This document shows positions 4,335 through 51,969 of a stretch of DNA of 64,000 nucleotides, piece after piece. The DNA is taken from the NCBI GenBank assembly GCA_009780415.1, contig WRAC01000002.1, forward strand, positions 8,895 to 72,894. The letters are read 5' to 3'. This DNA comes from Defluviitaleaceae bacterium (GTDB lineage: Bacteria > Bacillota > Clostridia > Lachnospirales > WRAX01). The notes beneath the pieces were generated by a model. It was given only the letters and a program-made list of their open reading frames with translations. It was not told the origin of the DNA and did not search any database. Positions within the stretch are counted from its first letter, which is position 1, and each line of letters opens with the position of its first letter. The position numbers were made by a program, and so were the translations under genes.

Positions 4335-6269
4335 ATGTTTACAAACAAGATGCGAATGACGGGTTTTTCAGGATTTGATTCCGAAGCGCTTGTACGCCAG
4401 CTTATGCAAGCGGAGAGTGTTAGATACAACAACCTTTTGAGGAGGAATACCTTCACACAATGGAAGCAGGAAGCCATCAGAAGTGTTGCAAACGATATCC
4501 GCTCGTTCCAGACAAACGTATTGAATGTCAGCGGTAAGGACTCCATACGGTTTCCATCGAACTTCCGCGCTACTTCCGGAGCGGTCACACGGGCTAACGG
4601 GGATGCCGCTAACGAAGTACGGGTAACCACGGGCGCGAATACGAGACTCGGCACATATGATGTGAAAATTCAGCAGATGGCTCAAAGGGAACGGCATCAG
4701 GGCGCTAAAGATTCCATTACTATAACCAGTAAACTGACAGGCGACGGTATTGATTTTAACAGTATTAAGCCCGGCGAGGGTTTCAGCTTCAACATAAGCG
4801 TTAACGGCGGCGCGTCAAGAACCATTCAATTTACCGCCGATGAAGCCGCGGAACTTCACGCGTTGAGGGATGATCCGGCGGAGGCTAACCAAAGGCTGCT
4901 GGAAATGTTAAATGGCAATGCTGAGGCCGATATTCCCAGCAAACTTGCCGCAGCCGGAATTGAGAACGTTACGGCAAGCATCACAAACAATCGGTTAGAG
5001 CTTACCAGCGCGAACGGCAGCCCGCTAAGGATCACAGGAACAGAAGGCTCCGCCGGAGCTTTAGGGATTTCTACGAATCAGGCCAGTATCGTAAATACAG
5101 ATATGAAATTGAGCGATCTGGGGATTGTCGGTTCGGGCGTATTTACCATCAACAACAAGGAAATTACGTTCAATGCCTCCGATTCCGTAAGCGATTTAAT
5201 GAAAAAGATAAGCGAACATGGCGCGACACTTCAATTTAACCAGCAAACTAAATCTTTCACGCTTCAAGGTAATCAGGTCGGCGCGAACGGCGCCCTTAAT
5301 CTGGGCGGCGAGGATCGTGACGTTATCATGGGAGCGCTGGGATTTCACACAGGGCCAGGCGCGCCGCCGCCCGGAGGCCCCACCTTCCAAGCGGCGCAGG
5401 ACACCGTCGCCTTTATCAACGACGAAAGGGTTACGAGCAGCAACAATGTCCTGAACCACCAGGGTATGTCCATCACGCTCGGAGTCGGTGTCAACGCCAC
5501 AACAAACTCCGAATTCCAAATAGAAGTCACAAGCGACACCACGCAGCTCAAGAATATGATTACAAACTTCGTGGATGAGTATAATAAGCTTGTTAAAACC
5601 CTTAACGACCTCCAGCGCACGCCCCGCCCAAAATCCGTAACCGGCGAATTCTTCGAGCCGCTGACGGACGAGGAAAAGAGGGGTATGACGGAAACCGAGA
5701 TCCAGAAATGGGAGGAAAAAGCACGGGAAGGCGTACTGCACAGGGATCCTATTCTTGAGAAGCTTCAGCGCGACATGCGCATGGCGCTTATGAACCCCGT
5801 TGAAATACGCGACGCTGACGGCAATGTGACAAGGATATCGCTCTCGATGCTGGGTATAACTACCACAAACAATCATGCCGACGGCGGTATTTTGGAAATA
5901 AACGAGGAGAAGCTTGACCAGATGCTCAGGGAGCGCCCGGACGACGTAAGGGCCTTGTTTACACAGTCCGGGGACGGCGCGGCGAAGGGCCTTGGCGACA
6001 GGCTGAACGATATTGTACACGGCGCAGTCAGCAGCGGCGGCACTTTAACCCGCTTGGCAGGCAGCGAAGCCCACACAGCTTCCGAAAAAACTAACAGAAT
6101 GTACCGCGAAATATCCGAGCAGAACAACAGGTTGGCGCAAATGCTGGATGTTTTACGGAAGAAAGAGGATTACTACTTTAGTATGTTCGCTAAAATGGAA
6201 GCCGCGATGATGAAGGCCGACTCGCAGATGGCGTCTATTATGGGGATGTTTGGCCAAGGGATGATGTAA
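4335..6269 (+). CDS. fliD: Flagellar filament capping protein FliD (hook-associated protein 2)
   Basis: The N-terminal MRMTGFSGFDSEALVRQLMQAE and the C-terminal coiled-coil region (YREISEQNNRLAQMLDVLRKKEDYYFSMFAKMEAAM) are typical FliD termini. Strong RBS AAGGAGGGGG. Confidence 0.9.
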   Translation: MFTNKMRMTGFSGFDSEALVRQLMQAESVRYNNLLRRNTFTQWKQEAIRSVANDIRSFQTNVLNVSGKDSIRFPSNFRATSGAVTRANGDAANEVRVTTGANTRLGTYDVKIQQMAQRERHQGAKDSITITSKLTGDGIDFNSIKPGEGFSFNISVNGGASRTIQFTADEAAELHALRDDPAEANQRLLEMLNGNAEADIPSKLAAAGIENVTASITNNRLELTSANGSPLRITGTEGSAGALGISTNQASIVNTDMKLSDLGIVGSGVFTINNKEITFNASDSVSDLMKKISEHGATLQFNQQTKSFTLQGNQVGANGALNLGGEDRDVIMGALGFHTGPGAPPPGGPTFQAAQDTVAFINDERVTSSNNVLNHQGMSITLGVGVNATTNSEFQIEVTSDTTQLKNMITNFVDEYNKLVKTLNDLQRTPRPKSVTGEFFEPLTDEEKRGMTETEIQKWEEKAREGVLHRDPILEKLQRDMRMALMNPVEIRDADGNVTRISLSMLGITTTNNHADGGILEINEEKLDQMLRERPDDVRALFTQSGDGAAKGLGDRLNDIVHGAVSSGGTLTRLAGSEAHTASEKTNRMYREISEQNNRLAQMLDVLRKKEDYYFSMFAKMEAAMMKADSQMASIMGMFGQGMM

Positions 6270-7213: not shown

Positions 7214-7243
7214 ACGGCGGCATCCGTAAAGAGGTGCCGCCGT
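7214..7243 (+). terminator. Rho-independent terminator after flaG
   Basis: Stem acggcggca/tgccgccgt followed by atactttttatt. Confidence 0.8.
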
Positions 7244-7285
7244 ATACTTTTTATTAGCAAAACGGAGGTATTATGACAGTTGATG

Positions 7286-7349
7286 CCAAGTTGCAATCTA
7301 AATCACACTAACTCCGCACGGAGTAAGTGTTGCTTTGATTGCAACTTGG
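7286..7349 (+). repeat. Nested-hairpin repeat, copy 2 (64-bp short form lacking the inner module)
   Basis: It has the same 31-bp outer arms as copy 4, but the 44-bp inner hairpin is replaced by the dinucleotide ca. Confidence 0.9.
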
Positions 7350-7456
7350 TATGAATTATCAGCGGCATAGCGTGACGATAAAGAAATATTACGAAACCTT
7401 ATGGAAAAGTATGATTATGTGTTCCTTTTTTCGTCTGTCAAATAATGAGTAACCCA

Positions 7457-7485
7457 TTGACAAATAAGGTTTATCCCTTCATAAT
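7457..7485 (+). promoter_or_regulatory. Candidate sigma-A promoter for valS
   Basis: TTGACA (7457-7462), 17 nt, CATAAT (7480-7485). Confidence 0.35.
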
Positions 7486-10188: not shown

Positions 10189-11571
10189 ATGACCTATATA
10201 GAAGCCGAACACGTTGTAATCAACAGTTATATCAAAGGCGCAAAAGGCGGGTTCGACGTGTGCGGGGACATTCTTGCCGCGCTGGGAGACCCCCACAAGA
10301 AGCTTAAGGTTATACATGTAACGGGCACCAACGGCAAAGGCTCCACCTGCGCTTTTTTACAAACGATTCTGACCGAAGCCGGATATAGGACGGGTATGTT
10401 TACCTCCCCTCACCTGTGCCGCTTTAATGAGCGGTTCAACATCAGCGGGGCTGATATTTCCAATGACGATTTCGCGCGCGTTACGGGCGACATCGTCAAT
10501 GTGTTCAGAAATCTGTACGGAGGCGAGCCCTTTACCGCGGCAAACAGGAGCGGCGTGAACATTTCATATTACGAGCTGCTGACTTTGATGGCGTTTAAGT
10601 ATTTCAACGACCAGAAAGTGGATATCGCCATTATCGAGGTCGGTATGGGCGGGCGCACCGACGCGACGAACATCCTGGACAACCCGCTTTTGTCCGTGAT
10701 GACAAAAGTCAGCCTGGATCATACCGACCGCCTCGGCTCAACCATCGTCACAATAGCGGCGGAAAAATGCGGTATAATAAAGAAAAACACGCCCGTCGCC
10801 CTCTTTTCACAAACAAAAGAGGTGTATAACGTAACCAAGGGCATCTGTTTTATCCGCAACGCTCCCATCTTTTACCCAATGGGTCTTACCGTGGAGATAT
10901 TAAGCGCCGATCTGGACGGCATAGTGTTTAATACTCGTTTCCCGTTCATGGGAGATGAAATCGTGGTTGAAAACGTTAAACTCGGCATGATCGGCGATTA
11001 TCAGGCATATAACGCCGCGAATGTTATAAACGTGGTTTACACGCTCAATGCGCTGGGCTTTAATATCAGCGAGGACGTTATGCGCCGCGGTCTTACGAAC
11101 ACCCGCTGGGCGGGGAGGCTTGAGATTATATCGCGGAATCCCATGGTTATCGTAGACGGCGCGCATAACCCGGAAGGCGCGGAAAGCGTTAAAAGGTTCA
11201 TGCAGAATTACTTAAAGGGCCGCAAAATCATTCTTGTCGCCGGCGTGCTGAACGATAAGGACTTCCGCGCGATAATGCGCCCGTTTTCCGAAGCCGCCGA
11301 CCAAATTATACTGACCCAGCCCAAATACAATGTGAAGGCATGCCCGCCCGAGTTCTTATTCGCCGCGCTGCCGGACCAGAGCAAGAGCGCCGGCGTTATC
11401 CACGATTACAGGGAAGCGGTTGATACCGCCAAGGAATTAGCCGGCGAAGACGGATGCGTCGTTGTTTCCGGTTCCCTGTACCTTGTCGGCGACATAAAAA
11501 TGTACTTGGAAAACCGTATAAACGACGATCTGGATGACGTCACACCCGAATTGCCGGAGGACGAAGATTGA
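10189..11571 (+). CDS. folC: Bifunctional folylpolyglutamate synthase / dihydrofolate synthase
   Basis: Mur-ligase P-loop HVTGTNGKGST, DGAHNPEGA, and valS-folC synteny as in other Firmicutes. Confidence 0.9.
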   Translation: MTYIEAEHVVINSYIKGAKGGFDVCGDILAALGDPHKKLKVIHVTGTNGKGSTCAFLQTILTEAGYRTGMFTSPHLCRFNERFNISGADISNDDFARVTGDIVNVFRNLYGGEPFTAANRSGVNISYYELLTLMAFKYFNDQKVDIAIIEVGMGGRTDATNILDNPLLSVMTKVSLDHTDRLGSTIVTIAAEKCGIIKKNTPVALFSQTKEVYNVTKGICFIRNAPIFYPMGLTVEILSADLDGIVFNTRFPFMGDEIVVENVKLGMIGDYQAYNAANVINVVYTLNALGFNISEDVMRRGLTNTRWAGRLEIISRNPMVIVDGAHNPEGAESVKRFMQNYLKGRKIILVAGVLNDKDFRAIMRPFSEAADQIILTQPKYNVKACPPEFLFAALPDQSKSAGVIHDYREAVDTAKELAGEDGCVVVSGSLYLVGDIKMYLENRINDDLDDVTPELPEDED

Positions 11572-13756: not shown

Positions 13757-14092
13757 ATGAAAAAATCATTGTTTGGATTGAGCGAGAACATGGCGGCGGC
13801 GTTTGCTTATGTGGGGGTTTTTGTTACGGGCATAATCGTGCTTGTAATGGAGAAGGAAAATAAAACCCTCCGCTTCCACGCCTTGCAATCAGTGGTACTG
13901 TTCGCCGGGTTATGCATTCTGACAACGGTAATGGGCTGGCTGCCGATAATCAATTTACTGGCCTGGATACCGAGGACACTAACCTTCGTCGCATGGTTAT
14001 TCTTAACATTCATGGCCTACAAAGGCGCTTTGATCAAAGTCCCGGTAATTGGGGACGCATGTTGGGCGCACATCCACAAGGATCAAGAATAA
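13757..14092 (+). CDS. DUF4870-family membrane protein
   Basis: LSENMAAAFAYVGVFVTGIIVLVMEKENKTLRFHALQS followed by two more TM helices, the typical DUF4870 layout. RBS GAGGAGG. Confidence 0.65.
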   Translation: MKKSLFGLSENMAAAFAYVGVFVTGIIVLVMEKENKTLRFHALQSVVLFAGLCILTTVMGWLPIINLLAWIPRTLTFVAWLFLTFMAYKGALIKVPVIGDACWAHIHKDQE

Positions 14093-14106
14093 AACAAATA
14101 TTATTT

Positions 14107-14177
14107 AACCACAAAAACCACAAAAAAACACAAAAAGCCTTTATTACTTTTTGTGTTTTTTTGTGGTTTCTGTGGTT
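14107..14177. terminator. Long bidirectional hairpin terminator between convergent genes
   Basis: aaccacaaaaaccacaaaaaaacacaaaaag / ctttttgtgtttttttgtggtttctgtggtt, a stem of about 30 bp, between 13757-14092 (+) and mtnN (-). Confidence 0.7.
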
Positions 14178-14187
14178 GAATATCTCT

Positions 14188-14886
14188 TTAAAAACTCAAA
14201 AGCATTCTCTCTACAATCGCGCCGCTTTGCTCAGCCGCCTTTATGACGAACTTGTTGAAATCTTCCGTAGCGCCGCCGTCTGCGGTGTCAGACATAGCGC
14301 GGATGATCACAAAGGGTATCTTGTTCAGATAACAGGCATGTCCGATTGCCGCGCCTTCCATTTCCACACAGCTTGCACTAAAAACATTGATTATGCGATC
14401 CTTATCTTCTTTACGCGAAACGAATAAATCACCGCTGGCAATTCTGCCTAAAATGGCTTTATGCCCGGACAAAACCACATCGCAGGCTTTTTCAGCCGCC
14501 GACACCAATTCCGAATCCGCTTCAAAAAAGCTTACGGGCATACGCGGAATTATACCCGCCTCATAGCCGAACATTGTTGCGTCGAAATCATGCTGAACCA
14601 CATCTTTGGAAATAACAACATCACATACGGAAAGCCGCGGGTCAAGGCCGCCGGCAACGCCCGTATTTATTATGCAATCCACACCGTACATGTCAGACAG
14701 CACCTGTACGCACACGGCAGCATTCACCTTCCCGATACCGCAGCGGACAACGACCGCGCTTACATCACGCAGCTTACCCATGTAAAATTCCGTACCGACA
14801 ATGCTTTTTGCCGATATCATTTCTAATTTAGGTTTTAAAACAGCTATCTCTTCATCCATTGCCCCAATAATGCCGATGGTTTTCAT
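14188..14886 (-). CDS. mtnN: 5'-methylthioadenosine/S-adenosylhomocysteine nucleosidase
   Basis: MKTIGIIGAMDEEI..., VGTEFYMGKL, GIGKVNAA, SASCVEMEGAAIGH: MtnN/Pfs signature regions. Confidence 0.9.
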   Translation of the reverse strand: MKTIGIIGAMDEEIAVLKPKLEMISAKSIVGTEFYMGKLRDVSAVVVRCGIGKVNAAVCVQVLSDMYGVDCIINTGVAGGLDPRLSVCDVVISKDVVQHDFDATMFGYEAGIIPRMPVSFFEADSELVSAAEKACDVVLSGHKAILGRIASGDLFVSRKEDKDRIINVFSASCVEMEGAAIGHACYLNKIPFVIIRAMSDTADGGATEDFNKFVIKAAEQSGAIVERMLLSF

Positions 14887-20530: not shown

Positions 20531-20555
20531 GGGGGCAGACATAAGGTCTGCCCCC
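20531..20555 (+). terminator. Rho-independent terminator after the bactofilin gene
   Basis: gggggcagac-ataa-ggtctgccccc followed by tttc. Confidence 0.75.
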
Positions 20556-20614
20556 TTTCAATTATTCCGCCTACTGTCAGATGTTTATAAAATGAAGCAA
20601 GCACATCCCTTATA

Positions 20615-20720
20615 CCAAGTTGCAATCAAAGCAACACTTACTCCGGGCGGATGAGCCGGCCTGAGCGTGAGTGTGCTGGATCATCCGCCCGGAGTTAGTG
20701 TGATTTAGATTGCAGCTTGG
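20615..20720 (-). repeat. Nested-hairpin repeat, copy 3 (full length, inverted relative to copy 4)
   Basis: It is the reverse complement of 29015-29120 with a handful of substitutions. It lies between convergent genes. Confidence 0.9.
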
Positions 20721-20793
20721 TGTTTATAAGCGGAATAAGCACCCTGCCCGTTCCGACTTATTCATTGAACAATTAATTCGTCTTCCATAAAAA

Positions 20794-28796: not shown

Positions 28797-29014
28797 TGCG
28801 CTGCTTCCGCACAAATCAGGCATTGTTAAAATATTATCCGTGATTTTGCGGAATACGGTATTCAGTGTAAAGCATGTACCAACAGTCCGAATTTGCGCGT
28901 ATGAAGTCCATTAAACTACGGTAGCTTGGCCCCCTGTTTTCCCAGGCGTTATCATTCCAGCCGGCAAACTCGTATGCGGAAACCGGCACCCTGTCAACGG
29001 GTTCGCGCCTGAGA

Positions 29015-29120
29015 CCAAGTTGCAATCTAAATCACACTAACTCCGGGCGGATGATCCGGTACGCTCACGCTCAGGCCGGCTCATCCGCCCGGAGTAAGTG
29101 TTGCTTTGATTGCAACTTGG
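29015..29120 (+). repeat. Nested-hairpin repeat, copy 4 (full-length reference copy)
   Basis: Layout: outer arm ccaagttgcaatctaaatcacactaactccg, inner hairpin ggcggatgatccgg-tacgctcacgctcagg-ccggctcatccgcc, outer arm cggagtaagtgttgctttgattgcaacttgg. It lies between convergent genes. Confidence 0.9.
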
Positions 29121-29152
29121 TATGAGACAGAGCGGAAGCCGCTCGCGGGAGG

Positions 29153-40399: not shown

Positions 40400-40423
40400 T
40401 GTACACAAATTTGTACTCAAAAA
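40400..40423 (+). repeat. 24-bp sub-terminal direct repeat (left copy), a candidate integrase arm-type site
   Basis: tgtacacaaatttgtactcaaaaa is identical to 58736-58759. It contains the near-palindrome gtacacaaatttgtac. Confidence 0.7.
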
Positions 40424-40638
40424 CATTTTTCATCTACATTTTTTCACAGTTTCGAGAGGAAAATATTTCGCCGACGTTCGCGTTGGTTTCGGTTCGTTTT
40501 GTATATTTTATAACAGAGTAGGGACGAGATAATAAATCCCTACACAACACCATTATATCATAAAGATATGCTATTTTCAAGCCTGCGGAAAAATTCATCA
40601 TAAACAAAAGTGTCCGACGGACAACCGATGGATAACAA

Positions 40639-40670
40639 AACCGCGCCCTTTTTTTAAGGTTTGCGCGGTT
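40639..40670 (-). terminator. Terminator of the SLH/beta-helix gene
   Basis: Minus strand: aaccgcgc-N16-gcgcggtt followed by ttgttat. Confidence 0.55.
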
Positions 40671-40736
40671 TGTCCGTTTTGCTTATAACCTTGTTTCCTA
40701 ATTATAATAAGCGTCTTTTATGGTTATTATGCGTCG

Positions 40737-42770
40737 TTATTGGGTTGAATTGTACATCTCGAATATACGGTTTACAAATGTCACCATTTCGCCCCGTGTA
40801 ACTTTTACGTCTGGGAGAAATAACACATCATCATTTATCCAACCTTGACCAACTGCGGTACGGATAAATATTTCACTCCAATGCCCTGCGATATTAATAT
40901 AATGTAACGGGACGGTATTATCAAGTTCAACGAATTGGCAAAAAAGCGTTATAAGCTCCGCCCACGATAAAAATTCGTATGGGTGATAACCGCCATTCCA
41001 CCCGTTTACAACACCGCAATTTGCTAATGTTGATACGGCTTCCGTAAACCACGCATTGTAAGGTACGTCATAAAATCTGCTTGTTCTAGTATAAACGGAA
41101 ATACGGCTCTCATTTGTTAATAAACGGTATATAATCATAGCCATTTCAGCCCTGTTAATTAATTGATTCGGTAAAGTTTGACCGTCAGCATATCCTTGTA
41201 AATAAGCCTTTTGGCTTGTATCAAGCACAGCACCGCCACGCATTAGGAGTTTAGGAGCTTGTGTCTGTATCGGTGTTGGTGTCGCTGTTGGCGTGGGAGT
41301 TGGCGGCGGTGTGGGGGTGATTGCATTGATATGTATATCTCTGTCACGGTTCGGGCTTGATGTATACGGTCTATATGTCGGTTGAGATTCCCATGTGTTT
41401 TCTGTCTCTGGCGACGAAGTAATACCCGGCGTAGGCTCTGGCGTAGATTGTATCGGCGGTGGAGTAGGCACAACTTTCGGCGTAGGTATATGCATGATTG
41501 ACGGCTCTATTGTTTGAGTTGGCGTGAGCGTAGGTTCTGGCGTTGGTGCTATTTCGGGGGTTGGTTCTGGTGTTATTGTTGGTATTGGTTCAGTTGTAGG
41601 CGTAGAACTCGGTGTAGGTTCTGTCGTAGGCTCTGGTGTAGGTTCTGTCGTAGGCTCTGGTGCCGGCTCTGGTGTAGGTTCTGTCGTAGGCTTTGGGGTA
41701 GGTTCTATCGTAGGCTTTGGGGTAGGTTCTGATGTGGGTTCTGGGGTCGGCTCTGGCTCTTGGGTAGGCTCTGGTGTTGGCGTGGGTTCTGGGGTCGGCA
41801 CAGGGGTCGGGGTGGGCTTTGCCGGAGGTATTAACGGCTCGGGTATTCTGTTGAGAACAGGAAAATAATAGTCGAGAATGTCGATAAAAACGATACTTGT
41901 TTCTTGATTGTCGGGTACTTCAGTACATTCTCTGATATTATCGCGTGTTAAGCGGTTTTCGGTTTCATCATAGAAAAACCCGGAGGAGCTTGTCCCGTAC
42001 ATACTTTTATAAAAATCATTATCCAAGATAACACGCAATATACCCGTGTTGTAAATGGTAGACGCTTCGATACGAGCGACGTTTTGAGAAAAAACATTCT
42101 CGTAATCGGCCGCACGGACGTAACCGCCGAGATTAACGATTGCTCCACCCCTTACTTGTGCCATGTTTTGGCTGAATCCCGTGCGGGTCATGGTTATGCT
42201 CCCGCCGTTGTTTTGTATCGCACCCCCAACCGCGCCGATATTATCCAAAAAATCGCAACTGTCAATAGTAATAGTCGCACCCGCTTCTACCGCGAATATA
42301 GCACCGTCTGTACTGACGTTTCTAAAAAAGTAACTGCTTTCAAGGTTCATATTACCGTTTACGGCATAAATTACGCTTCCGTTTTCTTCTGACCGATGAT
42401 TTATAATGTTAAGCATAGCCAGATTAGCATTGCTATATGATGTTATCAATCTGCCCCCGAAGGTGTCCCCACCATCGAAGCGAAGATATATCATACCCGT
42501 TTGCGAATCCCCCGGTAGAAGCACGAACATTGAACCCATGTAACCGCTATGCCGTTTTATTGTTTTGCCGGAAAAGTTCAATCGTGTGCCGTTCGGAATT
42601 TCTATGCGCCCACCAATGTATATAATATTTGACGTGTTAAATACTTCTATGAACTCCTCATAATTCGTAACAACCAGTCCGGCGTTTTCGTTCCCTACGG
42701 CGTTTACCTGTCCGAATAACGCAGATAAACACATAATAGCGGCAATAAATACCGCAATTCTCTTTTTCAT
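40737..42770 (-). CDS. Secreted beta-helix (Pmp-like repeat) surface protein with a Pro/Thr/Glu linker and C-terminal SLH domains
   Basis: Signal peptide MKKRIAVFIAAIMCLSALFGQVNA. Repeats of the GGAIxN type (VGGAIQNNGGSITM.., VRGGAIVNLGG). A linker of about 100 aa of (E/K)PTP units. C-terminal SLH-like repeats (LINRAEMAMIIYRLL, FYDVPYNAWF, VTRGEMVTFVNRIF). Confidence 0.75.
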   Translation of the reverse strand: MKKRIAVFIAAIMCLSALFGQVNAVGNENAGLVVTNYEEFIEVFNTSNIIYIGGRIEIPNGTRLNFSGKTIKRHSGYMGSMFVLLPGDSQTGMIYLRFDGGDTFGGRLITSYSNANLAMLNIINHRSEENGSVIYAVNGNMNLESSYFFRNVSTDGAIFAVEAGATITIDSCDFLDNIGAVGGAIQNNGGSITMTRTGFSQNMAQVRGGAIVNLGGYVRAADYENVFSQNVARIEASTIYNTGILRVILDNDFYKSMYGTSSSGFFYDETENRLTRDNIRECTEVPDNQETSIVFIDILDYYFPVLNRIPEPLIPPAKPTPTPVPTPEPTPTPEPTQEPEPTPEPTSEPTPKPTIEPTPKPTTEPTPEPAPEPTTEPTPEPTTEPTPSSTPTTEPIPTITPEPTPEIAPTPEPTLTPTQTIEPSIMHIPTPKVVPTPPPIQSTPEPTPGITSSPETENTWESQPTYRPYTSSPNRDRDIHINAITPTPPPTPTPTATPTPIQTQAPKLLMRGGAVLDTSQKAYLQGYADGQTLPNQLINRAEMAMIIYRLLTNESRISVYTRTSRFYDVPYNAWFTEAVSTLANCGVVNGWNGGYHPYEFLSWAELITLFCQFVELDNTVPLHYINIAGHWSEIFIRTAVGQGWINDDVLFLPDVKVTRGEMVTFVNRIFEMYNSTQ
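41510..41835. repeat. Tandem 12/24-nt coding repeats (EPTP linker)
   Basis: Reiterated ggttctgtcgtaggctctggtgta-type units on the plus strand. They produce spurious Gly/Ser/Val and Arg/Cys/Trp ORFs in other frames. Confidence 0.8.
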
Positions 42771-42838
42771 GGTTTCCCCTCCTGTTTTCTTTGGTTTAAT
42801 TTGGTATAGTTTAATCCTACAACCATTTCACCAAAAAA

Positions 42839-43192
42839 TCATTGCAAACTGGGTGGGTGATTTTTTCGCCAACGCCAGATTGTGGCATTATCGGCGGGGC
42901 AGTCCGCGCCGCCGCCGTTAAGTACATCATCAATGACCGCCGCCGCGTAATGCTTGCGTGGGCGCATGAAGTCGGGTATTTCTCTGTGTAGTGATTTGCA
43001 AACAGGACAGCGGACGCGGCGTAATAGGTAGACGGTAGCATTTCCGTCGTTGACGATAACGCGGCGCGGGCGCGAATCATAGCCGGAACATAAAGAGCCG
43101 CAGAGAGGGCAGAGCGGCGCGTCAAGGTTGCGAACGTGCAGAACGTCGGAATCGGGGTCTTTTACGAGATTGTAACGAGATATAATAATCAT
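42839..43192 (-). CDS. Zinc-ribbon protein (DUF6431-like)
   Basis: Two CxxC pairs (CPLCGSLC, CPVCKSLH) in a 117-aa protein. The family assignment is from memory of the pattern. Confidence 0.45.
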   Translation of the reverse strand: MIIISRYNLVKDPDSDVLHVRNLDAPLCPLCGSLCSGYDSRPRRVIVNDGNATVYLLRRVRCPVCKSLHREIPDFMRPRKHYAAAVIDDVLNGGGADCPADNATIWRWRKNHPPSLQ

Positions 43193-43324
43193 ACGGCTTT
43201 ATCACAGCCGTTTTATGAGATACCCCATAAACGCAAAAGCCCCGCAAAACGCAAAAGATTACAGCGGCAATATATACACCTCTGTATGGTATGCGTCCTA
43301 CGGGGTTATTTAGGTTCGTTCAAT

Positions 43325-44083
43325 TCAAAGCGAGCCGTTTTTATTTTCAATAATTTTTATATACCGTTCCAGTTCTCCGACCTCGTACCCCGCTATCAGT
43401 TCGGCAAGCGCGTCCGGCTTGTGCGGTTCGTTCCCGTAGTAGCTGTCGAAGCAGTCATAATATTTGCGCCTATCGGTGAATTTTATGTTGACGGGCAGGA
43501 ATCCCGCTTTTATCAATTCAAGGTTGATTATCAACCGTCCTGTACGCCCGTTGCCGTCAATGAATGGGTGTATACCCTCAAATCGGAGGTGAAACTCCGC
43601 TATCGCTTCTATGATGTGCCGCCCGCGCTTCATATCCTCGTATTCTGCGAGCAAGGCTTCCATTTGCGGCGCGATTAGGTACGGTTGCGGCGGTGTGTGT
43701 AAAGCCCCTTGAATCATCACCGGGACGCTCCTATATATACCCCTGTTTTCTGCGTCGCTCATCAATACAAGCGTGTGAATCTCTTTTATCCGGCGTTCTG
43801 TCAACGGGTCTGCTGTGTCGGAGATTTTAACAACATACTCGAAAGCGTCACGGTGTCCGATTGCGTCAAGGTGCATACGGAGCGGCTTTTCGCCGATTGT
43901 AATATCCTCTTGGAGAATGAGCGCGGTTTCCCGTAAGGTTAAGGTGCTTCCCTCTATGGCGTTCGTGTCGTAGGTAAATTCGATGTTAAATTCATTCCGT
44001 AACCGTTTCAATTCTCCGGCATTAAGAGGACGTAAAACGGCAAGCCGCGCCTTTAATTCGTTCAATTTTGAGTAATCAATCAT
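43325..44083 (-). CDS. Fic-family protein (second copy in the window)
   Basis: Fic motif HPFIDGNGRTGRLIINL. N-terminal TNAIEG inhibitory-type motif. ATG 44083 is preceded by AAAGGGGG and overlaps the upstream ORF stop by 8 nt (ATGATTGA). Confidence 0.85.
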   Translation of the reverse strand: MIDYSKLNELKARLAVLRPLNAGELKRLRNEFNIEFTYDTNAIEGSTLTLRETALILQEDITIGEKPLRMHLDAIGHRDAFEYVVKISDTADPLTERRIKEIHTLVLMSDAENRGIYRSVPVMIQGALHTPPQPYLIAPQMEALLAEYEDMKRGRHIIEAIAEFHLRFEGIHPFIDGNGRTGRLIINLELIKAGFLPVNIKFTDRRKYYDCFDSYYGNEPHKPDALAELIAGYEVGELERYIKIIENKNGSL

Positions 44084-44303
44084 TTTGCGCCCCCTTTCCT
44101 CTCTCCATAGCTTCATCAATGGCACGATTGACAAAACCGTTAAGGCTTTCGCCGTTCGATGTTGCATAATCCTTTATACTTTCCCGCTGACCTTTTTTTA
44201 CTCGAATGTTAAGCGTATCATAAGCCTTTGAATTCCACTTGTTTTTTACGGCTGTACTCGTATGGGTTTTACGCTTTTTATCCGTTTCAGTTATAACAAC
44301 CAC
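44076..44303 (-). CDS. Ribbon-helix-helix (Arc/CopG-like) small DNA-binding protein coupled to Fic
   Basis: ..KAYDTLNIRVKKGQRESIKDYATSNGESLNGFVNRAIDEAMER is a typical RHH beta-alpha-alpha pattern. Translationally coupled to the Fic gene. Confidence 0.6.
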   Translation of the reverse strand: MVVITETDKKRKTHTSTAVKNKWNSKAYDTLNIRVKKGQRESIKDYATSNGESLNGFVNRAIDEAMERGKGAQND

Positions 44304-44419
44304 CCACTTTTATATTATTTTTGGATAATCAATAACCGCACCATTATTATATACTACTTAATACAGTATGTCAAGAAAAAAGAAATTTCAAAAATAATAA
44401 AATATTTCTCAAAAAACAC

Positions 44420-44448
44420 TTGACATACTTAACACACCATGTTATACT
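44420..44448 (+). promoter_or_regulatory. Near-consensus sigma-A promoter
   Basis: TTGACA (44420-44425), 17 nt, TG-extended TATACT (44443-44448). Confidence 0.65.
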
Positions 44449-44451
44449 ATA

Positions 44452-44596
44452 TTCAGAGGTAGAGAGAAGCGGCGGCAAGCCGAAAGCACCGGGAAAGCCT
44501 ACCCCATATCCTTGTGAGTGGTCGCATACGAACCCCAATAGTCAAGAAGATGAGTAGCCCGCTTCTCCACAAATAAAAAACAGGAGGTACACCACC
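44452..44596 (+). other. Roughly 145-nt 5' leader with a long-range closing stem, a candidate structured RNA
   Basis: gagaagcgg (44464-44472) pairs with ccgcttctc (44559-44567), enclosing 86 nt. It is followed by an A-rich tract and GGAGG before ATG 44597. No known family recognised. Confidence 0.3.
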
Positions 44597-44863
44597 ATGA
44601 TAAACTTACAAGAAAAAATCAGAGAATACCGCGAGTTTAAGCGGTTAGCAGAGGAAGCGCAAACCGCCGCCGACAGCATAGCAGACGAACTAAAAGCGGC
44701 AATGCAGGAAGCGGGACAGGACAAAATGACAATCGGTGAGTATAAGCTCTCCTACACCGAAGCTACACGCGAAACCCTCGACAAGAAAAGATTGGAAGCA
44801 GACTTGGGCGACCTGTCCGACTACACGAAAGTCACAACCTACAAGCGGTTCTCGGTAGCATAG
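44597..44863 (+). CDS. Hypothetical protein (coiled-coil N-terminus)
   Basis: RBS CAGGAGG. 88 aa ending ..YTKVTTYKRFSVA. Proteins like it are recalled from firmicute mobile elements, with no function assigned. Confidence 0.5.
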   Translation: MINLQEKIREYREFKRLAEEAQTAADSIADELKAAMQEAGQDKMTIGEYKLSYTEATRETLDKKRLEADLGDLSDYTKVTTYKRFSVA

Positions 44864-44925
44864 GAAAAGCCCTTACATTAGCACCCGACCAAGAGTAACG
44901 ATGATAAGAGCTTTAACACCACCGC

Positions 44926-44964
44926 CGGAGCGGGGTAAATCAAGTATAGCACAGCCCCGCTCCG
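44926..44964 (+). terminator. Hairpin between small ORFs (weak terminator or processing site)
   Basis: cggagcgggg-N19-ccccgctccg followed by an AT-rich tract. Confidence 0.3.
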
Positions 44965-45001
44965 AATTACAATAAAATAATTATGAATGGAGCGTGAAAT
45001 T

Positions 45002-45205
45002 ATGTTGAACCCTCAAAGCCTGCCGAACGGCGGCGAGCAGTACGAGAAATATAAACCCGCCGGGCGCGGTATTGCACCCCGCTACGCATATGATTACAGG
45101 CATACCGACGGCGAGTTGTTCTCATGCGTTAAGCGGACGCTTGACGAGTGCCGCGCGGCGCGTGATGAATGGATAGCCAAGAAAGGAAGCGGCGGCGATG
45201 TTTGA
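45002..45205 (+). CDS. Hypothetical protein
   Basis: ATG 45002 follows GGAG. Contains ..YDYRHTDGELFSCVKRTLDECRAARDEW.. The track start is 44987. Confidence 0.45.
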   Translation: MLNPQSLPNGGEQYEKYKPAGRGIAPRYAYDYRHTDGELFSCVKRTLDECRAARDEWIAKKGSGGDV

Positions 45206-45386
45206 AAAATTGTTAAAAGAAATCGAGTACGCCAAGACCGCAACTTTTAAGCGTCAATCTCTTTACCACGAATACGGGCGTATCACAATGGCGCGGGAGT
45301 TGGGCGCAATAACTCAAAATGAGTATATGGAGCTTAACCACGCTTGCGTCTATGACGGGATTAACAATCCGAAACATTACGATTAA
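45198..45386 (+). CDS. Hypothetical protein
   Basis: 62-aa ORF whose start overlaps the upstream stop. Confidence 0.4.
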   Translation: MFEKLLKEIEYAKTATFKRQSLYHEYGRITMARELGAITQNEYMELNHACVYDGINNPKHYD

Positions 45387-45471
45387 CCGAAAGTGAGCAT
45401 TAATAAAAATCGTGCCGGGCGGGAGCTTATCCGCTCGGCGCGGCAAACCAAAAACCGAAAGGGGAATAATT

Positions 45472-46026
45472 ATGTATCCAAATCTTAAAGCGGAGTTCGG
45501 AATCGGAGGGCGGCGTTTCTGCGGAGTAAGCCCGGACCCCCTCTCTATGAATGGAATCATTAAAAAGCCGTTTTTGCTTGCCGTGTTGGGCGATATGGAA
45601 TCCCTCACCGATAGGCAAGCGCAAATAATCGCCGACGCATTGAACCAGTTAAGCCATATCGGGAATTATTGGCGACCCGCAATAACAGGCGACTATCTGC
45701 TTTCGCCTACGTTGACAATGTTTATCGCTGAAACTCACGAAAGGGAACATTTTAATTTATTTACCTTGATTGATATGCAGGGAATTATTGAGCAATACTG
45801 CGACGAGAGTAACTTCGTGTTTGAGTATCTCGACGACGACGAGCGGGACTTCCAAAAGATGTTTTATCGACATATACGGCGCAATGTAGCGGAATGGCTA
45901 CCTGTTGTCGAAAGGGCATTGAATGAGCCTATAAGCTATGCGGAATATCGTTGTATGTACAGTCATATCAACTTTGCGTATCATCATTTAGCACAGGTTG
46001 TTGAAAGGGGTATGCAGTATGCGTAA
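45472..46026 (+). CDS. Hypothetical protein
   Basis: ATG 45472 follows AAAGGGGA (MYPNLKAEFG..). The track start is 45412. Confidence 0.45.
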   Translation: MYPNLKAEFGIGGRRFCGVSPDPLSMNGIIKKPFLLAVLGDMESLTDRQAQIIADALNQLSHIGNYWRPAITGDYLLSPTLTMFIAETHEREHFNLFTLIDMQGIIEQYCDESNFVFEYLDDDERDFQKMFYRHIRRNVAEWLPVVERALNEPISYAEYRCMYSHINFAYHHLAQVVERGMQYA

Positions 46027-46273
46027 AGAGCGAATCGTAATCCCCATAGACAACCCGGCAGGACTGCGGGCGCATGAAGTGTTGGTAAAAGTCGCAATGA
46101 ACCAGTTAAGACGGGCGCAGGAAGCGGTACAAGTATTTTTAGATGAAACATTCCCAAATGTTGAAATCATCGACGAAAAGGTTATGCACGAAAGCAAATA
46201 CTGGGCGTTCCTTGACGGCGGCACAACCGTAGTCTACGGTTATAAAACAAAAACGATAGAAGTTATAAATTAA
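46019..46273 (+). CDS. Hypothetical protein
   Basis: ATG 46019 follows AAGGGG and overlaps the upstream stop. 84 aa. Confidence 0.4.
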   Translation: MRKERIVIPIDNPAGLRAHEVLVKVAMNQLRRAQEAVQVFLDETFPNVEIIDEKVMHESKYWAFLDGGTTVVYGYKTKTIEVIN

Positions 46274-46281
46274 AGGCAGAA

Positions 46282-46320
46282 CGCGAATATTAGACCCCGT
46301 AAAACGGGTCTATTTTCGCG
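46282..46320. terminator. Bidirectional terminator between convergent blocks
   Basis: cgcgaatat-tagacccc-gtaaaa-cgggtcta-ttttcgcg, an extended hairpin with T/A tracts on both sides. Confidence 0.7.
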
Positions 46321-46347
46321 TTAAAGCGTCGTTTATATATAGGAGGG

Positions 46348-46773
46348 TTAATCGTCGAGCTTATCGAACAACCCCTCTTTTACGGCTTTTTTGCATATTA
46401 CACCGTATATCCGTTTTACTGAATCGGTTGACAAGTCAAGCTCCGATGCGATTTCTTTCCATGTCAGACAATTTTCAAAACGTAAATTTAATAATCGCAT
46501 ATGCTCATAGGAAAGTGAAAATAAAAACATATCAAATTCGGCGCGTTGTTTAAGTAAATCATCTGTGCTTTTTTGCATATCAATAATATTTACCATTGTA
46601 TTATCGAAGCGGTGCGGGTTTAACTGTGATTTCGGCATACCGTCGATTTTGGGATTGCCTGCGGTAGCGGAAGCGTAAAGCGACAAAAGCCGCTTATTTG
46701 CGGCGGCAATTTTGTCATGCGCTCTATACAATTTTCTGAAATGCTCGTTTTTATCGTTCACACCCGCTACCAC
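46348..46773 (-). CDS. Sigma-70 region-4-type HTH protein (phage late-transcription regulator-like, ArpU/RinA class)
   Basis: C-terminal ..LLNLRFENCLTWKEIASELDLSTDSVKRIYGVICKKA.. is a region-4 HTH. Its size (141 aa) and phage context fit. Confidence 0.55.
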   Translation of the reverse strand: MVAGVNDKNEHFRKLYRAHDKIAAANKRLLSLYASATAGNPKIDGMPKSQLNPHRFDNTMVNIIDMQKSTDDLLKQRAEFDMFLFSLSYEHMRLLNLRFENCLTWKEIASELDLSTDSVKRIYGVICKKAVKEGLFDKLDD

Positions 46774-46837
46774 CCCACGATGGTTTTATGATTACACCAA
46801 TTTCACCCCCGATAATTACATTTTCCATTGCGCCGAA

Positions 46838-49800
46838 TTATGAAAATGCCCCCCTCATGTTACGGATTCTTAACGATTGCGTCCTGTCTACCATATCCGC
46901 GACGACACGGGGTTCGCCCGACGTGTCGTTAATGTTGAACGTGGATTTTTGGTCGTAGGCATAGGAACGGTTATCGTAGGAAATATTGTTGTTTGACGTG
47001 GTGTATGACGCTTGGGTAGCTTGCCCCATTTGCCCCATTACCCTGTTCGCGTTGTCAAGAAACTCACCCATTTTCGCACCCAGTCCGGCGAGGTCTACGC
47101 CGCCGACGGTAGAGGTCGCGGCTTCCGCGCCTTTTCCAAGAATGGCAACGATTTGGGCGATTGAACCGCTGATGTTTTGCAATATCGCGCTGACTTTCTC
47201 AATGCTCGCGCCGCCGTCCTGTTTCTTAAATTGGTCGGAAACTTTATTAATCCATTCGGTATTCTTTTCAAGGGGTACGACAGCTTCCGCGCCCGTACCT
47301 TCCAAAAGTCCTACCTGCCCCTTGCGAAGAACGCCGCCCTTTGCCAGTTCCGGGATTTGCGGCGTATTGATAATAGGCATCCAGTCAAACGGTTTAAGAC
47401 CAAATATGCTAATGTCTTTGATTTTTTGTAATGCCGCATTAATTCCGTCAAAGGGGAGAGTGATAACGGTATTGATTCCGCGAATAATGCCATTTACAAT
47501 ATTCTTAAAGGCTTCCAGTATTCCGTTCCCTATTCCGCTGAATATTTCGCCACCCTTTGAAAATACGTCCTTGACACCCTGCCATGCGCCGGAAAATATA
47601 CCTATGAACCAGTCTGCGATTCCAATAAACGGGGCTTTTATACTGTCCCATATCCCGGCAAAGTAATCACCGACCGCGTTCCAAATGCCCTTGATACCCT
47701 CCCATGCGTTTTTGAAAATATCTTGAATTGTGTTCTCGCCGCTAAACGCGCCGATTATGCTATCCCATATACCAGAGAAAAAATCACCGACAGCGGAGAA
47801 TATGCCTTTGATACCCTCCCATGCCGCGCCGAATAATCCCTCGAACCACCCGGCGACATCGGGAAACATTCCCTTGATTTTGTCCCAAATACCGCCAAAG
47901 AACTCGCCAACAGCCGCGAAAGCGGTTTTTATGCCCTCCCAAGCACCAGAGAACAGCCCGGAGAACCATTCTGCCACGCCCGAAAACGCGCTCATTATAC
48001 TGTTCCAAATGCCTACGAAGTAGTCCCCGACCGCGTTCCAAATGCCGACTATTCCGTCCCAAGCAGTAGAAAATATATCACCTATCGTGTTTTCGCCGGA
48101 GAACGCTCCTATGATACTGTTCCAAACGCCAGTAAAGAACTCGCCAACGGCGGCGAAAATGCCCTTAATGCCCTCCCACGCACCGCTGAACAAGTCCTCA
48201 AACCATTCGGCTACGTTGGGGAACTTCTCTTTTATCCCCTGCCAAACGCCGCCGAAAAACTCTCCGACGGCGGCAAACGCGCCCGTGATTCCGTCCCATG
48301 CGCCAGTAAACAAACCCGTAAACCATTCCGCAACGCCAGAAAACAATTCGGATATTTTATCCCATATCCGGGTAAAAAACGCGGCGGCGGTCGCCTATGC
48401 GCCGGAGATACCCTCCCACGCTCCGCTGAACTTTTCGGAGAACCATGTCGCTACACCCGTAAACGCGGCTGATATGCTTTCCCATATTCCAGAGAAGTAC
48501 GCGCCAACCGCGTCCCAGATACCTTTAATGCCCTCCCATGCGGTTATAAAGATGTCTTGGATTGTATTTTCGCCCTTGAAAGCACCGATAATGCTGTCCC
48601 ATATACCCTTGAAAAAATCTCCGACGGCGGCGAAAACTCCCTTGATACCATTCCATGCTGATGTAAAAGTATCTTCAAACCACCCGGCGACGTTTGGGAA
48701 TTTTTCTTTTATGCCGTCCCAGATACCTCCGAAAAATTCACCGACTGCCGAGAACGCGCCTTTTATGCCGTCCCAAGCCTTAGAAAAAATGTCGGTAAAC
48801 CATGTGCCGACGGTTGAGAATATATTTTTTATGCCCTCCCAAACATCGGAAAAGAAGCCCGGTATCGCTTCCCATATGCCCTTGACCCAATCGACGAATT
48901 TAGATATGGCTTTCTTTATGTTCTCCCACACATTTATGAAGAAATTTCGGAAGCCCTCGCTATTGTTCCATAGCAGAATGAATCCGGCGACAAGCGCGGC
49001 GATAAGCCCTATGATAATGCCGATAGGGTTTGCGTTCATAGCCGCGTTAAGAAGCCATTGCGCGGTGGTGAGAGCCGTCTTGACGGCTTTTACAGCCGTT
49101 ATAGCCGTTTTGTACGCGATTATTGCGCCGACTAATGCAAATACAACCTCTTTCGCGCCCTTTAACTGAATGAACCATGTGACTGCGTTGGCAACTTTGG
49201 TCGCAACATCAGCCAATAGCCCTATCGCGCCGGGTAATGCGTCGCTGATAAGCCAAGTTAAAAAAGGCGATAAGATGTCCGCTCCGTCCATAAAGCCGCC
49301 AAACAGCGTTGACAAAACAGTACCGATTGCGGCAAATATGCTTTTAATCGCGCCGCCTACTTTTTCAAAGGTGGCTTTGAAGTTGTCAATCGCACCACTT
49401 TCTTGGAGCGTGTTCCAAAAGTTGCGTACCCATGATATGACGCGCAAGATACTAAGCCTTATAGCGTCCATTGCTCTCTCGAATCCCTGTTTAAGTTTTT
49501 CGATTACGCCGCCCTGCTTGTTAAGTTCTGTCCATATATCTATAAGCCATTGCCAAAACCCGCCGAGAAGCGCGTCCCCGCCGTCCAAATATGTGAAAAA
49601 ATCCTCCGCAAGCAACATCAGAGCCGAAAATATCATAATAAGTTTACCTACAAACCCGGATTTAATGAAAAATGCTAAAGCCGACAATATTGCCATAACG
49701 CCCTTTACTTCTGTGGGAATCATATCAAACACGCGCTTAATTACGTTAAATATAATCCCCGCGCCGCGTATGATTGTGCCGCCGAGTTGTACCAACCATG

Positions 49801-50407
49801 CAAGGGCTTTCGCAATGTTCGATGTCCAGTTAGGTATATTTTTTTTCAGCGTTTCGTTGAATCCGTTAAACAGCTTCCTTAAATTCTCCATAGGAGTTTG
49901 GACGTATTTAAGAAAATGATAGCCTACCCATTGCAAGGCGTTCGACGCTGTTTGTTTTATCTCCTTGAAAGCTGTCGCCATTTCGCGGAACGGTTCGAGT
50001 GCTTCCGACATATCGGGCATTTTGAGTGTTTCCGCGTTCCTCTTTAACTGCTCAAATTCTTTCAACAATCGCGGGTCGAGCGCAATTTCCTCCATGCTCT
50101 TACCCATAATGTCGAGCGCGGATTTTACTTTGTACGCTTCCTCACGCGGCAGACCCATGTTTCGGGCAAATCTCGTTAATTCGTCGTCCGCTCTTGAAAG
50201 GTTGCTCGTAAATTTCAAAAGCCCTGCGGCGGCTACGGACACGAAGCCCGTAACCGCCAGTCCCGCTTTGGCGAAATCCTTGACAAAAGAGTTAGCCAGT
50301 TTGTTTGTTTTTCTTTCTGCGTCCTTTGTGGCTTTTTCGAGTTGCTTTGTCATGTTGTCTTTCAAGCCAAGAGCAACTAAAAATTCATTCAATACCAAGA
50401 ATCTCAC
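46838..50407 (-). pseudogene. Phage tail tape-measure gene interrupted by one in-frame TAG
   Basis: Two track ORFs (48395-50407 and 46838-48346) are in the same frame and separated only by a TAG at 48395-48397. Together they make 1190 codons. Features: TM-rich centre, reiterated W/F-periodic units ([26 protein letters not shown]), and position after a tail-chaperone gene. Confidence 0.75.
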
Positions 50408-50425
50408 CTCGCTTCCGATTAGGCT

Positions 50426-50935
50426 TTATTCGCGTTCCGTATATGGTTGTGTGCGCGGAAAGGAAGAAGATAGGGGCGACATAATTGAAGTCAAGCGTTT
50501 TCCATCGAAAAAATCGCCGATACTCCACATAATTACCTCGCAGAGCAAGCGCAGGACGAGCAACGGGTCGTGTTCCACGTCCAGTACGCCGTATGTCCCG
50601 TCCGGGTTAAGGACGCGGGCTTCACCCGCAGGGAGCAGTTCAAAGGCGTTCTGTAAAGACTTCTGCATGATGTAATCGAAGTCTGCGGGTGCTACCTTGT
50701 CGAGCGTTTCCGCTATGGTGTCGAGCGAGAGGTAGTCCCCCAAGTTCGACAATACCGCTTCCGCGTGTACCCCGCTTTTTTGCGCTTCCGCGACAAGCGG
50801 CATAAAGTTCTGAAATACGGGTAGGATTTTCGCAATAAAAACCTTTACGACTTTCAGCCCGTCCATTGCCGGGTATTTTTTGACGATAAAGTTGCGTTCC
50901 TCGATTGTGATTGTTTTAGAGATTGTCCGTGCCAT
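50426..50935 (-). CDS. Phage tail assembly chaperone-like protein
   Basis: 169-aa acidic protein immediately upstream of the tape-measure gene. Called mainly from position. Confidence 0.5.
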   Translation of the reverse strand: MARTISKTITIEERNFIVKKYPAMDGLKVVKVFIAKILPVFQNFMPLVAEAQKSGVHAEAVLSNLGDYLSLDTIAETLDKVAPADFDYIMQKSLQNAFELLPAGEARVLNPDGTYGVLDVEHDPLLVLRLLCEVIMWSIGDFFDGKRLTSIMSPLSSSFPRTQPYTERE

Positions 50936-51054
50936 AATAAAATCCCTCTTTTCTTATTTTTGTGGTTTGGCATTTATAGCCAACGATTTTTACTGCCCTG
51001 TTGGGTGTTTTCTGCGGTCATAAGCTCGCCTGTACTAACTTTATTATTATGTAA

Positions 51055-51343
51055 CTATGGTACACCTCCTTTTTGATGTTCGTCGTCCGGCACAGGGTAG
51101 TTTTTCGAGCGTAGATATATAAATAAATCCGCTTGCCGCTCAACCTCCGTTATTTCTTCATCGGTGAATCTAAAATACCTATATGGTGACATTTGCAAAG
51201 CAACACTTAACTTTGACGCAATCACTAATTCGTCTAAGGTCGCAAGAGTAAGGTCGTTTTTTCTTTGCAAATGTGGGTTCGAGCTTATCCGTTACTTTGT
51301 CTATACGGTTATTCATTTCTTTTTTACTTAACGGTTTACCCAT
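51055..51343 (-). pseudogene. Small phage ORF apparently frameshifted at a homopolymer
   Basis: ATG 51343 (RBS AAGGGTG) reads MGKPLSKKEMNNRIDKVTDKLEPTFAKKK. The reading then continues in another frame as the track ORF 51055-51270. The switch coincides with the A6/T6 run at 51256-51261. Confidence 0.4.
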
Positions 51344-51357
51344 TTTGTACACCCTTG

Positions 51358-51969
51358 TTATGTAATTAATGATTTCAACCAGTTGCGTGAATTATAGCGA
51401 CGGGTCGCAAGCCACACACCCATTGCCGCCGACAGTACAATATCGTCGTGTACCCCCTCGCGCCACGCTTCGTACTGGTCGTGACCGTTGAGATTTATTT
51501 TCACCTTGAAATTAGTTAGCTCCTTAACAAGTGTGTCCGCTCCCTCTAAATCCCGCGCAATTTTTAACTGTTCGTTTTGGAAAGCTACTTGCAGGGCAGA
51601 TATTAAATCCCGCTTCGGTACGCGGTATATTTTGCCGTCCTCCGTGACTTCGTTCCCGCCCGTTATTAAAACCCCTCGCAGATTCGCCCATGTTCCACGA
51701 AAATTTTGTTTCAATAAATCCCACACAGGACGACCGACACCAGTAATATCAATGGCAACGGTTTTGTGTTGTTGCTTAATTTGCGGGCTTTCTGCAATCT
51801 CTTTTAAGCGGTCAACAATTTTGGGGTACGGTGTGCCGCGCTCCGGGCGTTCGATACGCCGTAAATGATATTCCGCTCCCTTTTCATCTGTAAGAAAACT
51901 TTCAATAATGGTTATCGCGGTAAAATCGCTTATTTGCGCCAAGTCTGCTGATATAAAATATTCTCCCAT
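51358..51969 (-). CDS. Terminase large subunit, C-terminal nuclease-domain ORF
   Basis: MGEYFISADLAQISDFTAITIIE.. (RNaseH-like nuclease start with an acidic residue) ... HDDIVLSAAMG. It has its own AGGAGGGG RBS 7 nt upstream. Confidence 0.65.
   Translation of the reverse strand: MGEYFISADLAQISDFTAITIIESFLTDEKGAEYHLRRIERPERGTPYPKIVDRLKEIAESPQIKQQHKTVAIDITGVGRPVWDLLKQNFRGTWANLRGVLITGGNEVTEDGKIYRVPKRDLISALQVAFQNEQLKIARDLEGADTLVKELTNFKVKINLNGHDQYEAWREGVHDDIVLSAAMGVWLATRRYNSRNWLKSLIT

Follow-up and report, generated by a model that had tools for sequence, protein, structure and literature searches.

What kind of element is the nested hairpin of about 106 bp that lies between two convergent genes at 29015–29120 of the window, and how has it come to be repeated in the same DNA? 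The window, which is the whole stretch of DNA that was analysed, is 64,000 nucleotides long and comes from a Defluviitaleaceae bacterium. A sequence-only reading placed four copies of the hairpin at 1–73, 7286–7349, 20615–20720 and 29015–29120, and all four are present at these positions when the sequence is read. A separate repeat search of the window recovers the same family as direct-repeat families D5 and D9 and inverted families I1–I12, and a degenerate 31-nt pattern covering both arms gives seven matches in the window and none in 100 dinucleotide-preserving shuffles. The positions stand, but the extent of the copies does not: the true ends lie 2 nt further out on each side and read TACCAAG...CTTGGTA. 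The corrected spans are 1–75, where the window edge cuts the first copy, 7284–7351, 20613–20722 and 29013–29122, and the element is 110 nt long in its long form and 68 nt long in its short form.

Copy 4, a long form of 110 nt delimited by sequence, fold and alignment (29013–29122, plus strand), consists of a left terminal inverted repeat at 29013–29045, an inner hairpin at 29046–29089 and a right terminal inverted repeat at 29090–29122, all on the plus strand, and its predicted fold has an energy of -72.7 kcal/mol (z -11.3). Its convergent neighbours are the URO-D gene, with a stop codon at 28721, and a gene for a 410-aa protein, with a stop codon at 29153. The triplet TGA is found immediately to its left (29010–29012) and again immediately to its right (29123–29125). 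Copy 3 is a long form in the opposite orientation (20613–20722, minus strand), detected as inverted repeat I1 with 96% complementarity to copy 4, and is located between the bactofilin terminator (20531–20555) and the terminator of an RCC1-repeat gene (20815–20800, minus strand). Its flanking triplets are TTA at 20610–20612 and TTT, one mismatch away from TTA, at 20723–20725. Copy 2, recognized from sequence and fold, is the 68-nt short form (7284–7351, plus strand), in which the two outer arms are linked by CA and the 44-nt inner hairpin is missing. It is flanked by TGA at 7281–7283 and at 7352–7354, and lies between the FlaG terminator (7214–7243) and a promoter-like site (TTGACA-17-CATAAT, 7457–7485) for the ValRS gene. 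Copy 1 is a long form (1–75, plus strand) whose left 35 nt lie beyond the window edge; it is seen whole on another contig (L026:10879–10988, reverse strand), 5 nt past the stop codon of a 290-aa GNAT gene and 38 nt ahead of the start of the next GNAT gene. The TTA on its right side (76–78) has its partner outside the window, where contigs L026, L027 and L030 show it to be TTA as well.

The sequence-only reading had noticed short similarities, tgaga around copy 4 and ttata around copy 3, as hints of target duplication. A real duplication stands behind them but the register was wrong, since the true repeat is 3 bp long. The 5-bp TGAGA match at copy 4 is a coincidence, because only the 3-bp register holds across the copies. 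The terminal dinucleotides of the window copies are peculiar in their own right. Read in the orientation of the element, the left one is altered in three of the four copies, being TG in copy 2 (7284–7285), CA in copy 3 (20721–20722, where TG/CA takes the place of TA) and GA in copy 4 (29013–29014), whereas TA is present at both ends in all 17 copies outside the window. One possibility is that the window copies with an altered end are older, immobilised ones.

The internal architecture is as first described, with 31-nt outer arms, an inner stem of 14 bp and a 16-nt loop of the sequence TA-CGCTCA-CGCTCA-GG. The outer arms differ at five positions (14, 17, 18, 19 and 25), producing four mismatches and one G-U wobble. 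The claim that every copy keeps the same asymmetric mismatches is correct apart from small exceptions in two window copies, namely a T at left-arm position 25 in copy 1 and a T-to-C change at left-arm position 6 in copy 3; position 25 is corrected to pair both in copy 1 and in the copy L005b. Since the arm asymmetry is kept, each copy has a definable orientation. The terminal inverted repeat is perfect over 15 bp (TACCAAGTTGCAATC) and continues imperfectly to 33 bp, so that the element begins with TACCAAGTTGCAATC and ends with GATTGCAACTTGGTA. Predicted folding energies lie between -61 and -75 kcal/mol for the long form and between -36 and -40 kcal/mol for the short one, and z falls between -8.5 and -12.8 whichever strand is folded. 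No open reading frame of at least 80 aa lies within any copy, and the listed frames touch only the edges of copies, in agreement with the earlier statement that the element is non-coding.

A scan of 241 million metagenome records with a 23-nt end pattern returned 21 stretches in JGI metagenome contigs, mostly large Ga0123353 contigs. Once duplicate loci are removed (L016 is the same as L005b, and L008 the same as L006) and the four window copies are counted in, the missing part of copy 1 being supplied by L026, L027 and L030, there are at least 23 distinct insertion sites, 4 in the window and 19 on other contigs, and 21 of them are complete with both flanks. The 19 other sites come mostly from the same termite-gut metagenome, and the element is the only sequence that they have in common with the window. 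The tetranucleotide composition of the contigs that carry the element correlates with that of the window at r of 0.80–0.97, compared with 0.33–0.65 for Lachnospiraceae loci. Pairwise identity among 18 long copies is 93–100%, with a mean of 96.8%. This high identity, together with the conserved left/right asymmetry of the arms, indicates that the copies descend from one master sequence, as the sequence-only reading had argued. All 21 complete copies are intergenic, so that this part of the original description extends to the whole family. An exact scan with the 22-nt right-arm core finds nothing in 185,579 species-representative genomes and nothing in viral contigs, and comparison of the window element with a plasmid collection gives only chance matches of 20–33 nt. 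A search of the searchable literature with the end sequence gave only unrelated primers.

When all copies are oriented alike, the flanks read TxA-TA-[CCAAG...CTTGG]-TA-TxA, with x equal on the two sides. A perfect 3-bp direct repeat of the form T-N-A is present in 19 of the 21 complete copies and carries one mismatch in the other two, and equal TNA triplets at the same spacing occur in the same DNA at a chance rate of 0.0012. Twelve copies have A as the middle base, four have T, another four have G and one has C. A longer palindrome would not explain a base that varies between copies and yet matches on both sides, as in TGA...TGA and TCA...TCA, so the triplet is a direct duplication. A pyrimidine precedes it in 16 of the 21 copies and a purine follows it in 17, the latter position never being T, which gives a target of the form Y|TNA|R.

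[quoted passage not shown] It is therefore very probable that the element is a non-coding, non-autonomous DNA transposon moved at TNA targets by a transposase acting in trans. The original description of a REP/MITE-like mobile hairpin is thus half right: the MITE part agrees with the inverted repeats, the TNA duplication in 19 of 21 copies, the 23 sites and the identity of about 97%, and the REP part fails. The family is a new one of a well-known kind, and is neither a terminator nor an RNA gene. That the element has been mobile is suggested by the duplications themselves. In a plausible mechanism, a DDE transposase provided in trans would bind and cleave the inverted ends and would cut the target with a 3-nt stagger at T-N-A within Y|TNA|R, and gap repair would leave TNA duplicated on either side of the inserted element. 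The enzyme may belong to the IS5 family (IS1031-, ISL2- or IS427-like), which comprises the bacterial relatives of PIF/Harbinger, since 3-bp TNA or TWA duplications typify that superfamily. An IS5-type transposase is our best guess, taken from the length and sequence of the duplication. Within IS5, a target of 3 nt is reported to be common in the IS1031 group (PMC2516522). The duplications typical of the IS5-related groups PIF/Harbinger and NuwaII are TWA and C|TNA|G, respectively (PMC4482050), compared with Y|TNA|R here. The PIF/Harbinger elements, the Tourist-like MITEs and the IS5 groups IS1031, ISL2 and IS427 share with the present element the 3-bp TNA/TWA duplication at a palindromic, AT-centred target, and Tourist-like MITEs are also short non-autonomous derivatives mobilised in trans. 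In eukaryotic terms, a MITE of this sort would be called Tourist-like. Bacteria commonly carry MITEs, and this family adds a clear TNA-duplicating, "Tourist-like" example in an uncultured Defluviitaleaceae bacterium of a higher-termite gut.

The likeness to IS5 and PIF/Harbinger is one of target signature; no IS5-family transposase and no full-length insertion sequence (IS) with TACC... ends was found. The remark that no transposase lies nearby is borne out by the 64-kb window and by the surrounding gene lists. An autonomous partner is likewise absent from the window, the fetched loci and the metagenome matches to the 23-nt end pattern; the collected element loci have no long repeat in common, and at no site among the metagenome matches do two ends enclose a coding insert. 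The precise end sequence and target now available can be used for tracing the missing transposase. Contigs with identical flanking proteins are all either filled or broken inside the element, so that they offer no empty site and no presence/absence polymorphism. The closest sequenced relatives, with ValRS 59–73% identical, are too distant for a comparison of orthologous sites. Among representative genomes scanned by ValRS, the best match is 59% identical, and 1.5 Mb of ValRS-relative loci from these genomes contain no end-like sequence. The element is also absent from relatives taken from the protein database, whose ValRS is 66–73% identical, and locus L113 keeps the FlaG–ValRS arrangement but is too diverged to reveal an empty site.

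A different element of 238 bp is present in another metagenome (L014:1322–1559, contig Ga0066631_10048613, 36% G+C). It has the same 13-nt termini and matches at about 20 of 23 end bases; its interior is unrelated and it lacks a clean TNA duplication. Compared with plasmids, it gives only a 33-nt A-rich Campylobacter stretch (E = 0.2), with no inverted partner and no IS nearby. This element may be another non-autonomous derivative of the same IS in another organism, and its termini suggest that the TACC...GGTA ends belong to a wider family of elements.

Suppose instead that the host had selected the hairpin as an RNA element that works at gene ends, to terminate transcription, to stabilise mRNA 3' ends or to be processed by RNase III. 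Its great stability on either strand would then be expected, and each window copy does come after a stop codon. At one locus (L006), the duplicated TAA even doubles as the stop codon of the upstream gene, and such effects on transcripts have known precedents in Correia and ERIC elements (PMC10969869). The placement just downstream of a stop codon or terminator is real for the window copies but does not extend to the family as a whole. With crude longest-ORF gene calls, the neighbouring gene ends of the 21 copies are 5' ends in 19 cases and 3' ends in 19 cases, so that the supposed bias to gene 3' ends disappears and the pattern in the window is a small-sample effect. The gene contexts of these copies are convergent in 3 cases, divergent in 3 and tandem in about 11, with one side unknown in the rest, and in tandem contexts the element is sense to transcription in 4 and antisense in 7, with no bias. 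The stem is not followed by a T-run or U-tract, since the right end reads ...CTTGGTA-TNA, and a terminator scan finds nothing at the element and separate terminators nearby. Copies 2 and 3 lie behind such separate intrinsic terminators and are thus probably little transcribed. When 19 long copies are aligned, the share of paired cells is 94.9%, a value equal to that of shuffles, and a single double change is seen, in the copy whose core is inverted (described below). Substitutions are mostly pair-breaking; one pair has become a C-A mismatch in 9 of the 17 distinct sequences. There is no covariation, and the suggestion of a 3'-end stabiliser is not supported, given the lack of a 3'-end or orientation bias, the pair-breaking substitutions and the separate terminators. 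Against Rfam, the window has no match at the gathering score, and the E-value mode returns only look-alikes of miRNA precursors, at 18–33 bits against thresholds of 87–90, which owe their scores to its long hairpin shape. The absence of an Rfam match and of covariation and the presence of both orientations contradict a structured RNA gene, and a selected RNA element of any kind is very unlikely. As a MITE, the element probably owes its long hairpin to its inverted ends and palindromic core as a by-product, and not to selection for an RNA structure.

The same evidence on the target bears on two other ways in which such palindromes could spread. A REP/BIME-type sequence copied by a RAYT (TnpA-REP) or an IS200/IS605-type HUH enzyme acting on single-stranded hairpins would be a strong imperfect palindrome, extragenic, present in both orientations and without an adjacent transposase, just as is seen here. 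REP units are about 20–40 nt long and are spread by HUH enzymes without target duplication, whereas the present element is 110 nt long, occurs as single copies and not in BIME-like clusters, and carries a perfect TNA duplication in 19 of 21 copies. To our knowledge, HUH-mediated elements create no target duplications at all, and no Y1/HUH transposase domain occurs in any gene list obtained. Since the element makes a target duplication, the earlier proposal of a RAYT/IS200-type substrate is not supported, and this route is extremely improbable. The arms could also be the ends of a larger IS, with the short copies as solo or collapsed ends. The five fixed differences between the left and right arms resemble the IRL and IRR of an IS, and the 238-bp element of L014 shows the same termini at a greater spacing. 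Yet at all 23 sites the arms are separated by only 2 nt or by the 44-nt hairpin, the single-arm matches are explained by locus ends, by a mismatch to the search pattern or by the one truncated copy, and the 23-nt end pattern finds no end pair around a coding insert in the 241 million metagenome records. We give next to no probability to this last reading as an account of the copies themselves; it is compatible with the MITE interpretation, as insertion sequences of this kind are the usual origin of MITEs. The insertions are no assembly artefact, since they recur at the same places in the independent JGI, ENA and Logan assemblies.

The family includes a few variants, of a sort already known from palindromic MITEs. 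A second short copy with the same core as copy 2 occurs at a different site (L015:2456–2519, core coordinates). In another copy (L005:11626–11735, identical with L016:1837–1946) the 44-nt inner hairpin is reversed relative to the outer arms, the bases beside the core are altered (G to T and C to A) and one arm mismatch is corrected. A third kind of variant, at about 10999–11045 of L003, is truncated and lacks the left half. The possibility that the inner hairpin is a separately inserted repeat was considered and rejected: about 300 kb of DNA from this organism contain it only within the element, so that it is an integral part and not a second, nested repeat. The short form, the inverted-core copy and the half-deleted copy may all be products of palindrome instability, caused by deletion of the hairpin or by strand-switch inversion.

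Although a selected RNA role is very unlikely for the family, individual copies could have been co-opted by the host, and effects on neighbouring genes are possible at single sites as incidental consequences of a hairpin in a 5' or 3' untranslated region or of an outward -10-like junction. At TAA targets, the right junction reads TGGTATAA, which is close to an extended -10 box, so that an outward promoter is a possibility. Genes point away from the right end in 8 of 18 cases and do not in 10, and a consensus promoter scan yields no site within it. The copies that lie less than 40 nt ahead of a start codon are copy 1, one in L019 and one in L009 (12082–12191). The L009 copy has a TTGACA hexamer on its upstream side and a ribosome-binding site on the other, and is about 22 nt from the ATG; the hexamer was read by eye, and the promoter scan reports no site there. 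In a more far-reaching interpretation, the element would be the trace of an undescribed IS5/PIF-like transposase lineage with TACC...GGTA ends that is active in termite-gut Clostridia, with the central hairpin as an invertible or deletable module that affects the adjacent gene. If so, flipping or loss of the hairpin could alter the expression of the neighbour through the outward TGgTATAA extended -10-like junction at TAA targets, in a manner resembling the Correia-type phase variation proposed for Neisseria. We regard this combination as unlikely.

The closest working analogue of the MITE described here is the Correia element of Neisseria, yet the two are not of the same family. Correia elements (CREE/NEMIS) are also about 100–150 bp long, non-coding, bounded by inverted repeats and present in tens or more of intergenic copies; they too occur as long and short forms by internal deletion, inversion has been reported for them, their target junctions can make -10-like boxes, and once transcribed their hairpin may be cut by RNase III (PMC10969869). 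Correia elements have demonstrated functions as promoters, in IHF binding and with RNase III. The host differs, being a Clostridia MAG and not Neisseria. There is no sequence similarity between the two, and the ends of the present element are presumably unrelated to the Correia terminal repeat. Correia elements duplicate the 2-bp TA, whereas the 3-bp TNA is duplicated here. We know of no cognate transposase for Correia elements, a situation that is the same for the present family in the window, the fetched loci and the metagenome matches. RUP, BOX and SPRITE of Streptococcus pneumoniae and ERIC of enterobacteria are likewise small palindromic intergenic repeats with possible effects on mRNA stability (PMC10969869). 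Their sequences are unrelated to that of the present element, which is itself without an Rfam match. RUP is linked to an IS630-type TA duplication, and BOX is modular and lacks a duplication.

The host of the family is an uncultured Defluviitaleaceae MAG from the gut of a higher termite. The window matches JGI 3300010167 contig Ga0123353_10000139 exactly and contig k141_2470743 of ENA ERZ27257304 at 99.996% identity. A sister sample, 3300010369, was taken from the P1 segment of the gut of Labiotermes labralis, a higher termite (PMC7800795). Since flagella, YutH and a SpoIIAA/AB-type sigma-factor operon are encoded, the organism appears to be a motile, spore-forming member of Clostridia. Several short-read contigs end inside or beside the element (L028, L029, L118, L121 and L122; Logan SRR10512951 and SRR5215140). 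Ends of this kind show that the element fragments assemblies of the host organism, as expected for a dispersed repeat. On contig L025 (Ga0136643_10118659), the stretch 2100–2180 joins the left flank of window copy 2 (7278–7354) to the right flank of L015:2451–3599, and the junction falls exactly across the 68-nt short form. This contig is either an assembly chimera at the repeat or the result of a real recombination between two copies. Breakage and mis-joining of short-read contigs by the element matter for MAG quality in these samples, and the element can be used as a strain marker. The practical consequences are otherwise modest, and no new biological question is opened.

The window contains further repeats. 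A 27-bp direct repeat (TGTACACAAATTTGTACTCAAAAA[C/G]AT), identical at 26 of 27 positions, is found at 40400–40426 and 58736–58762 and brackets about 18 kb that encode a tyrosine integrase (56748–58211), an HTH regulator, halves of a terminase large subunit, a tail-assembly chaperone, a small sigma-like protein and a Fic protein. The region from 40400 to 58762 has the appearance of a small prophage or phage-like island that has integrated and is bounded by its attL and attR. Within this phage-like region, diverged internal repeats with a period of about 120–360 nt (47573–48803; families D2 and D3, 62–73% identity) sit in large minus-strand open reading frames, which suggests a repeat-domain tail or fibre protein. 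Long tandem repeats with a 12-nt period (GGTGTAGGTTCT-like) occupy 41260–41830 inside the minus-strand frame 40737–42770, whose 677-aa product has a weak S-layer-homology match and looks like a repetitive, low-complexity cell-surface protein. At 14102–14182, an inverted repeat with 36-nt arms that are 94% complementary and built of CCACAAAAA-type units lies between the convergent frames 13757–14092 (plus strand) and 14188–14886 (minus strand); it is probably a bidirectional terminator unrelated to the MITE. Finally, in the related locus L113 (ENA ERZ27257299), where ValRS is 72% identical and the order FliD–FlaG–ValRS is kept, the FlaG–ValRS spacer carries an unrelated palindromic repeat (CCCAAACCCCC...TTTTGAAA / TTTCAAAAGTTTGCGGG...) that is present twice, at 4640–4792 and 10578–10712, 6 kb apart. 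This repeat may represent a second MITE-like family in a sister lineage.
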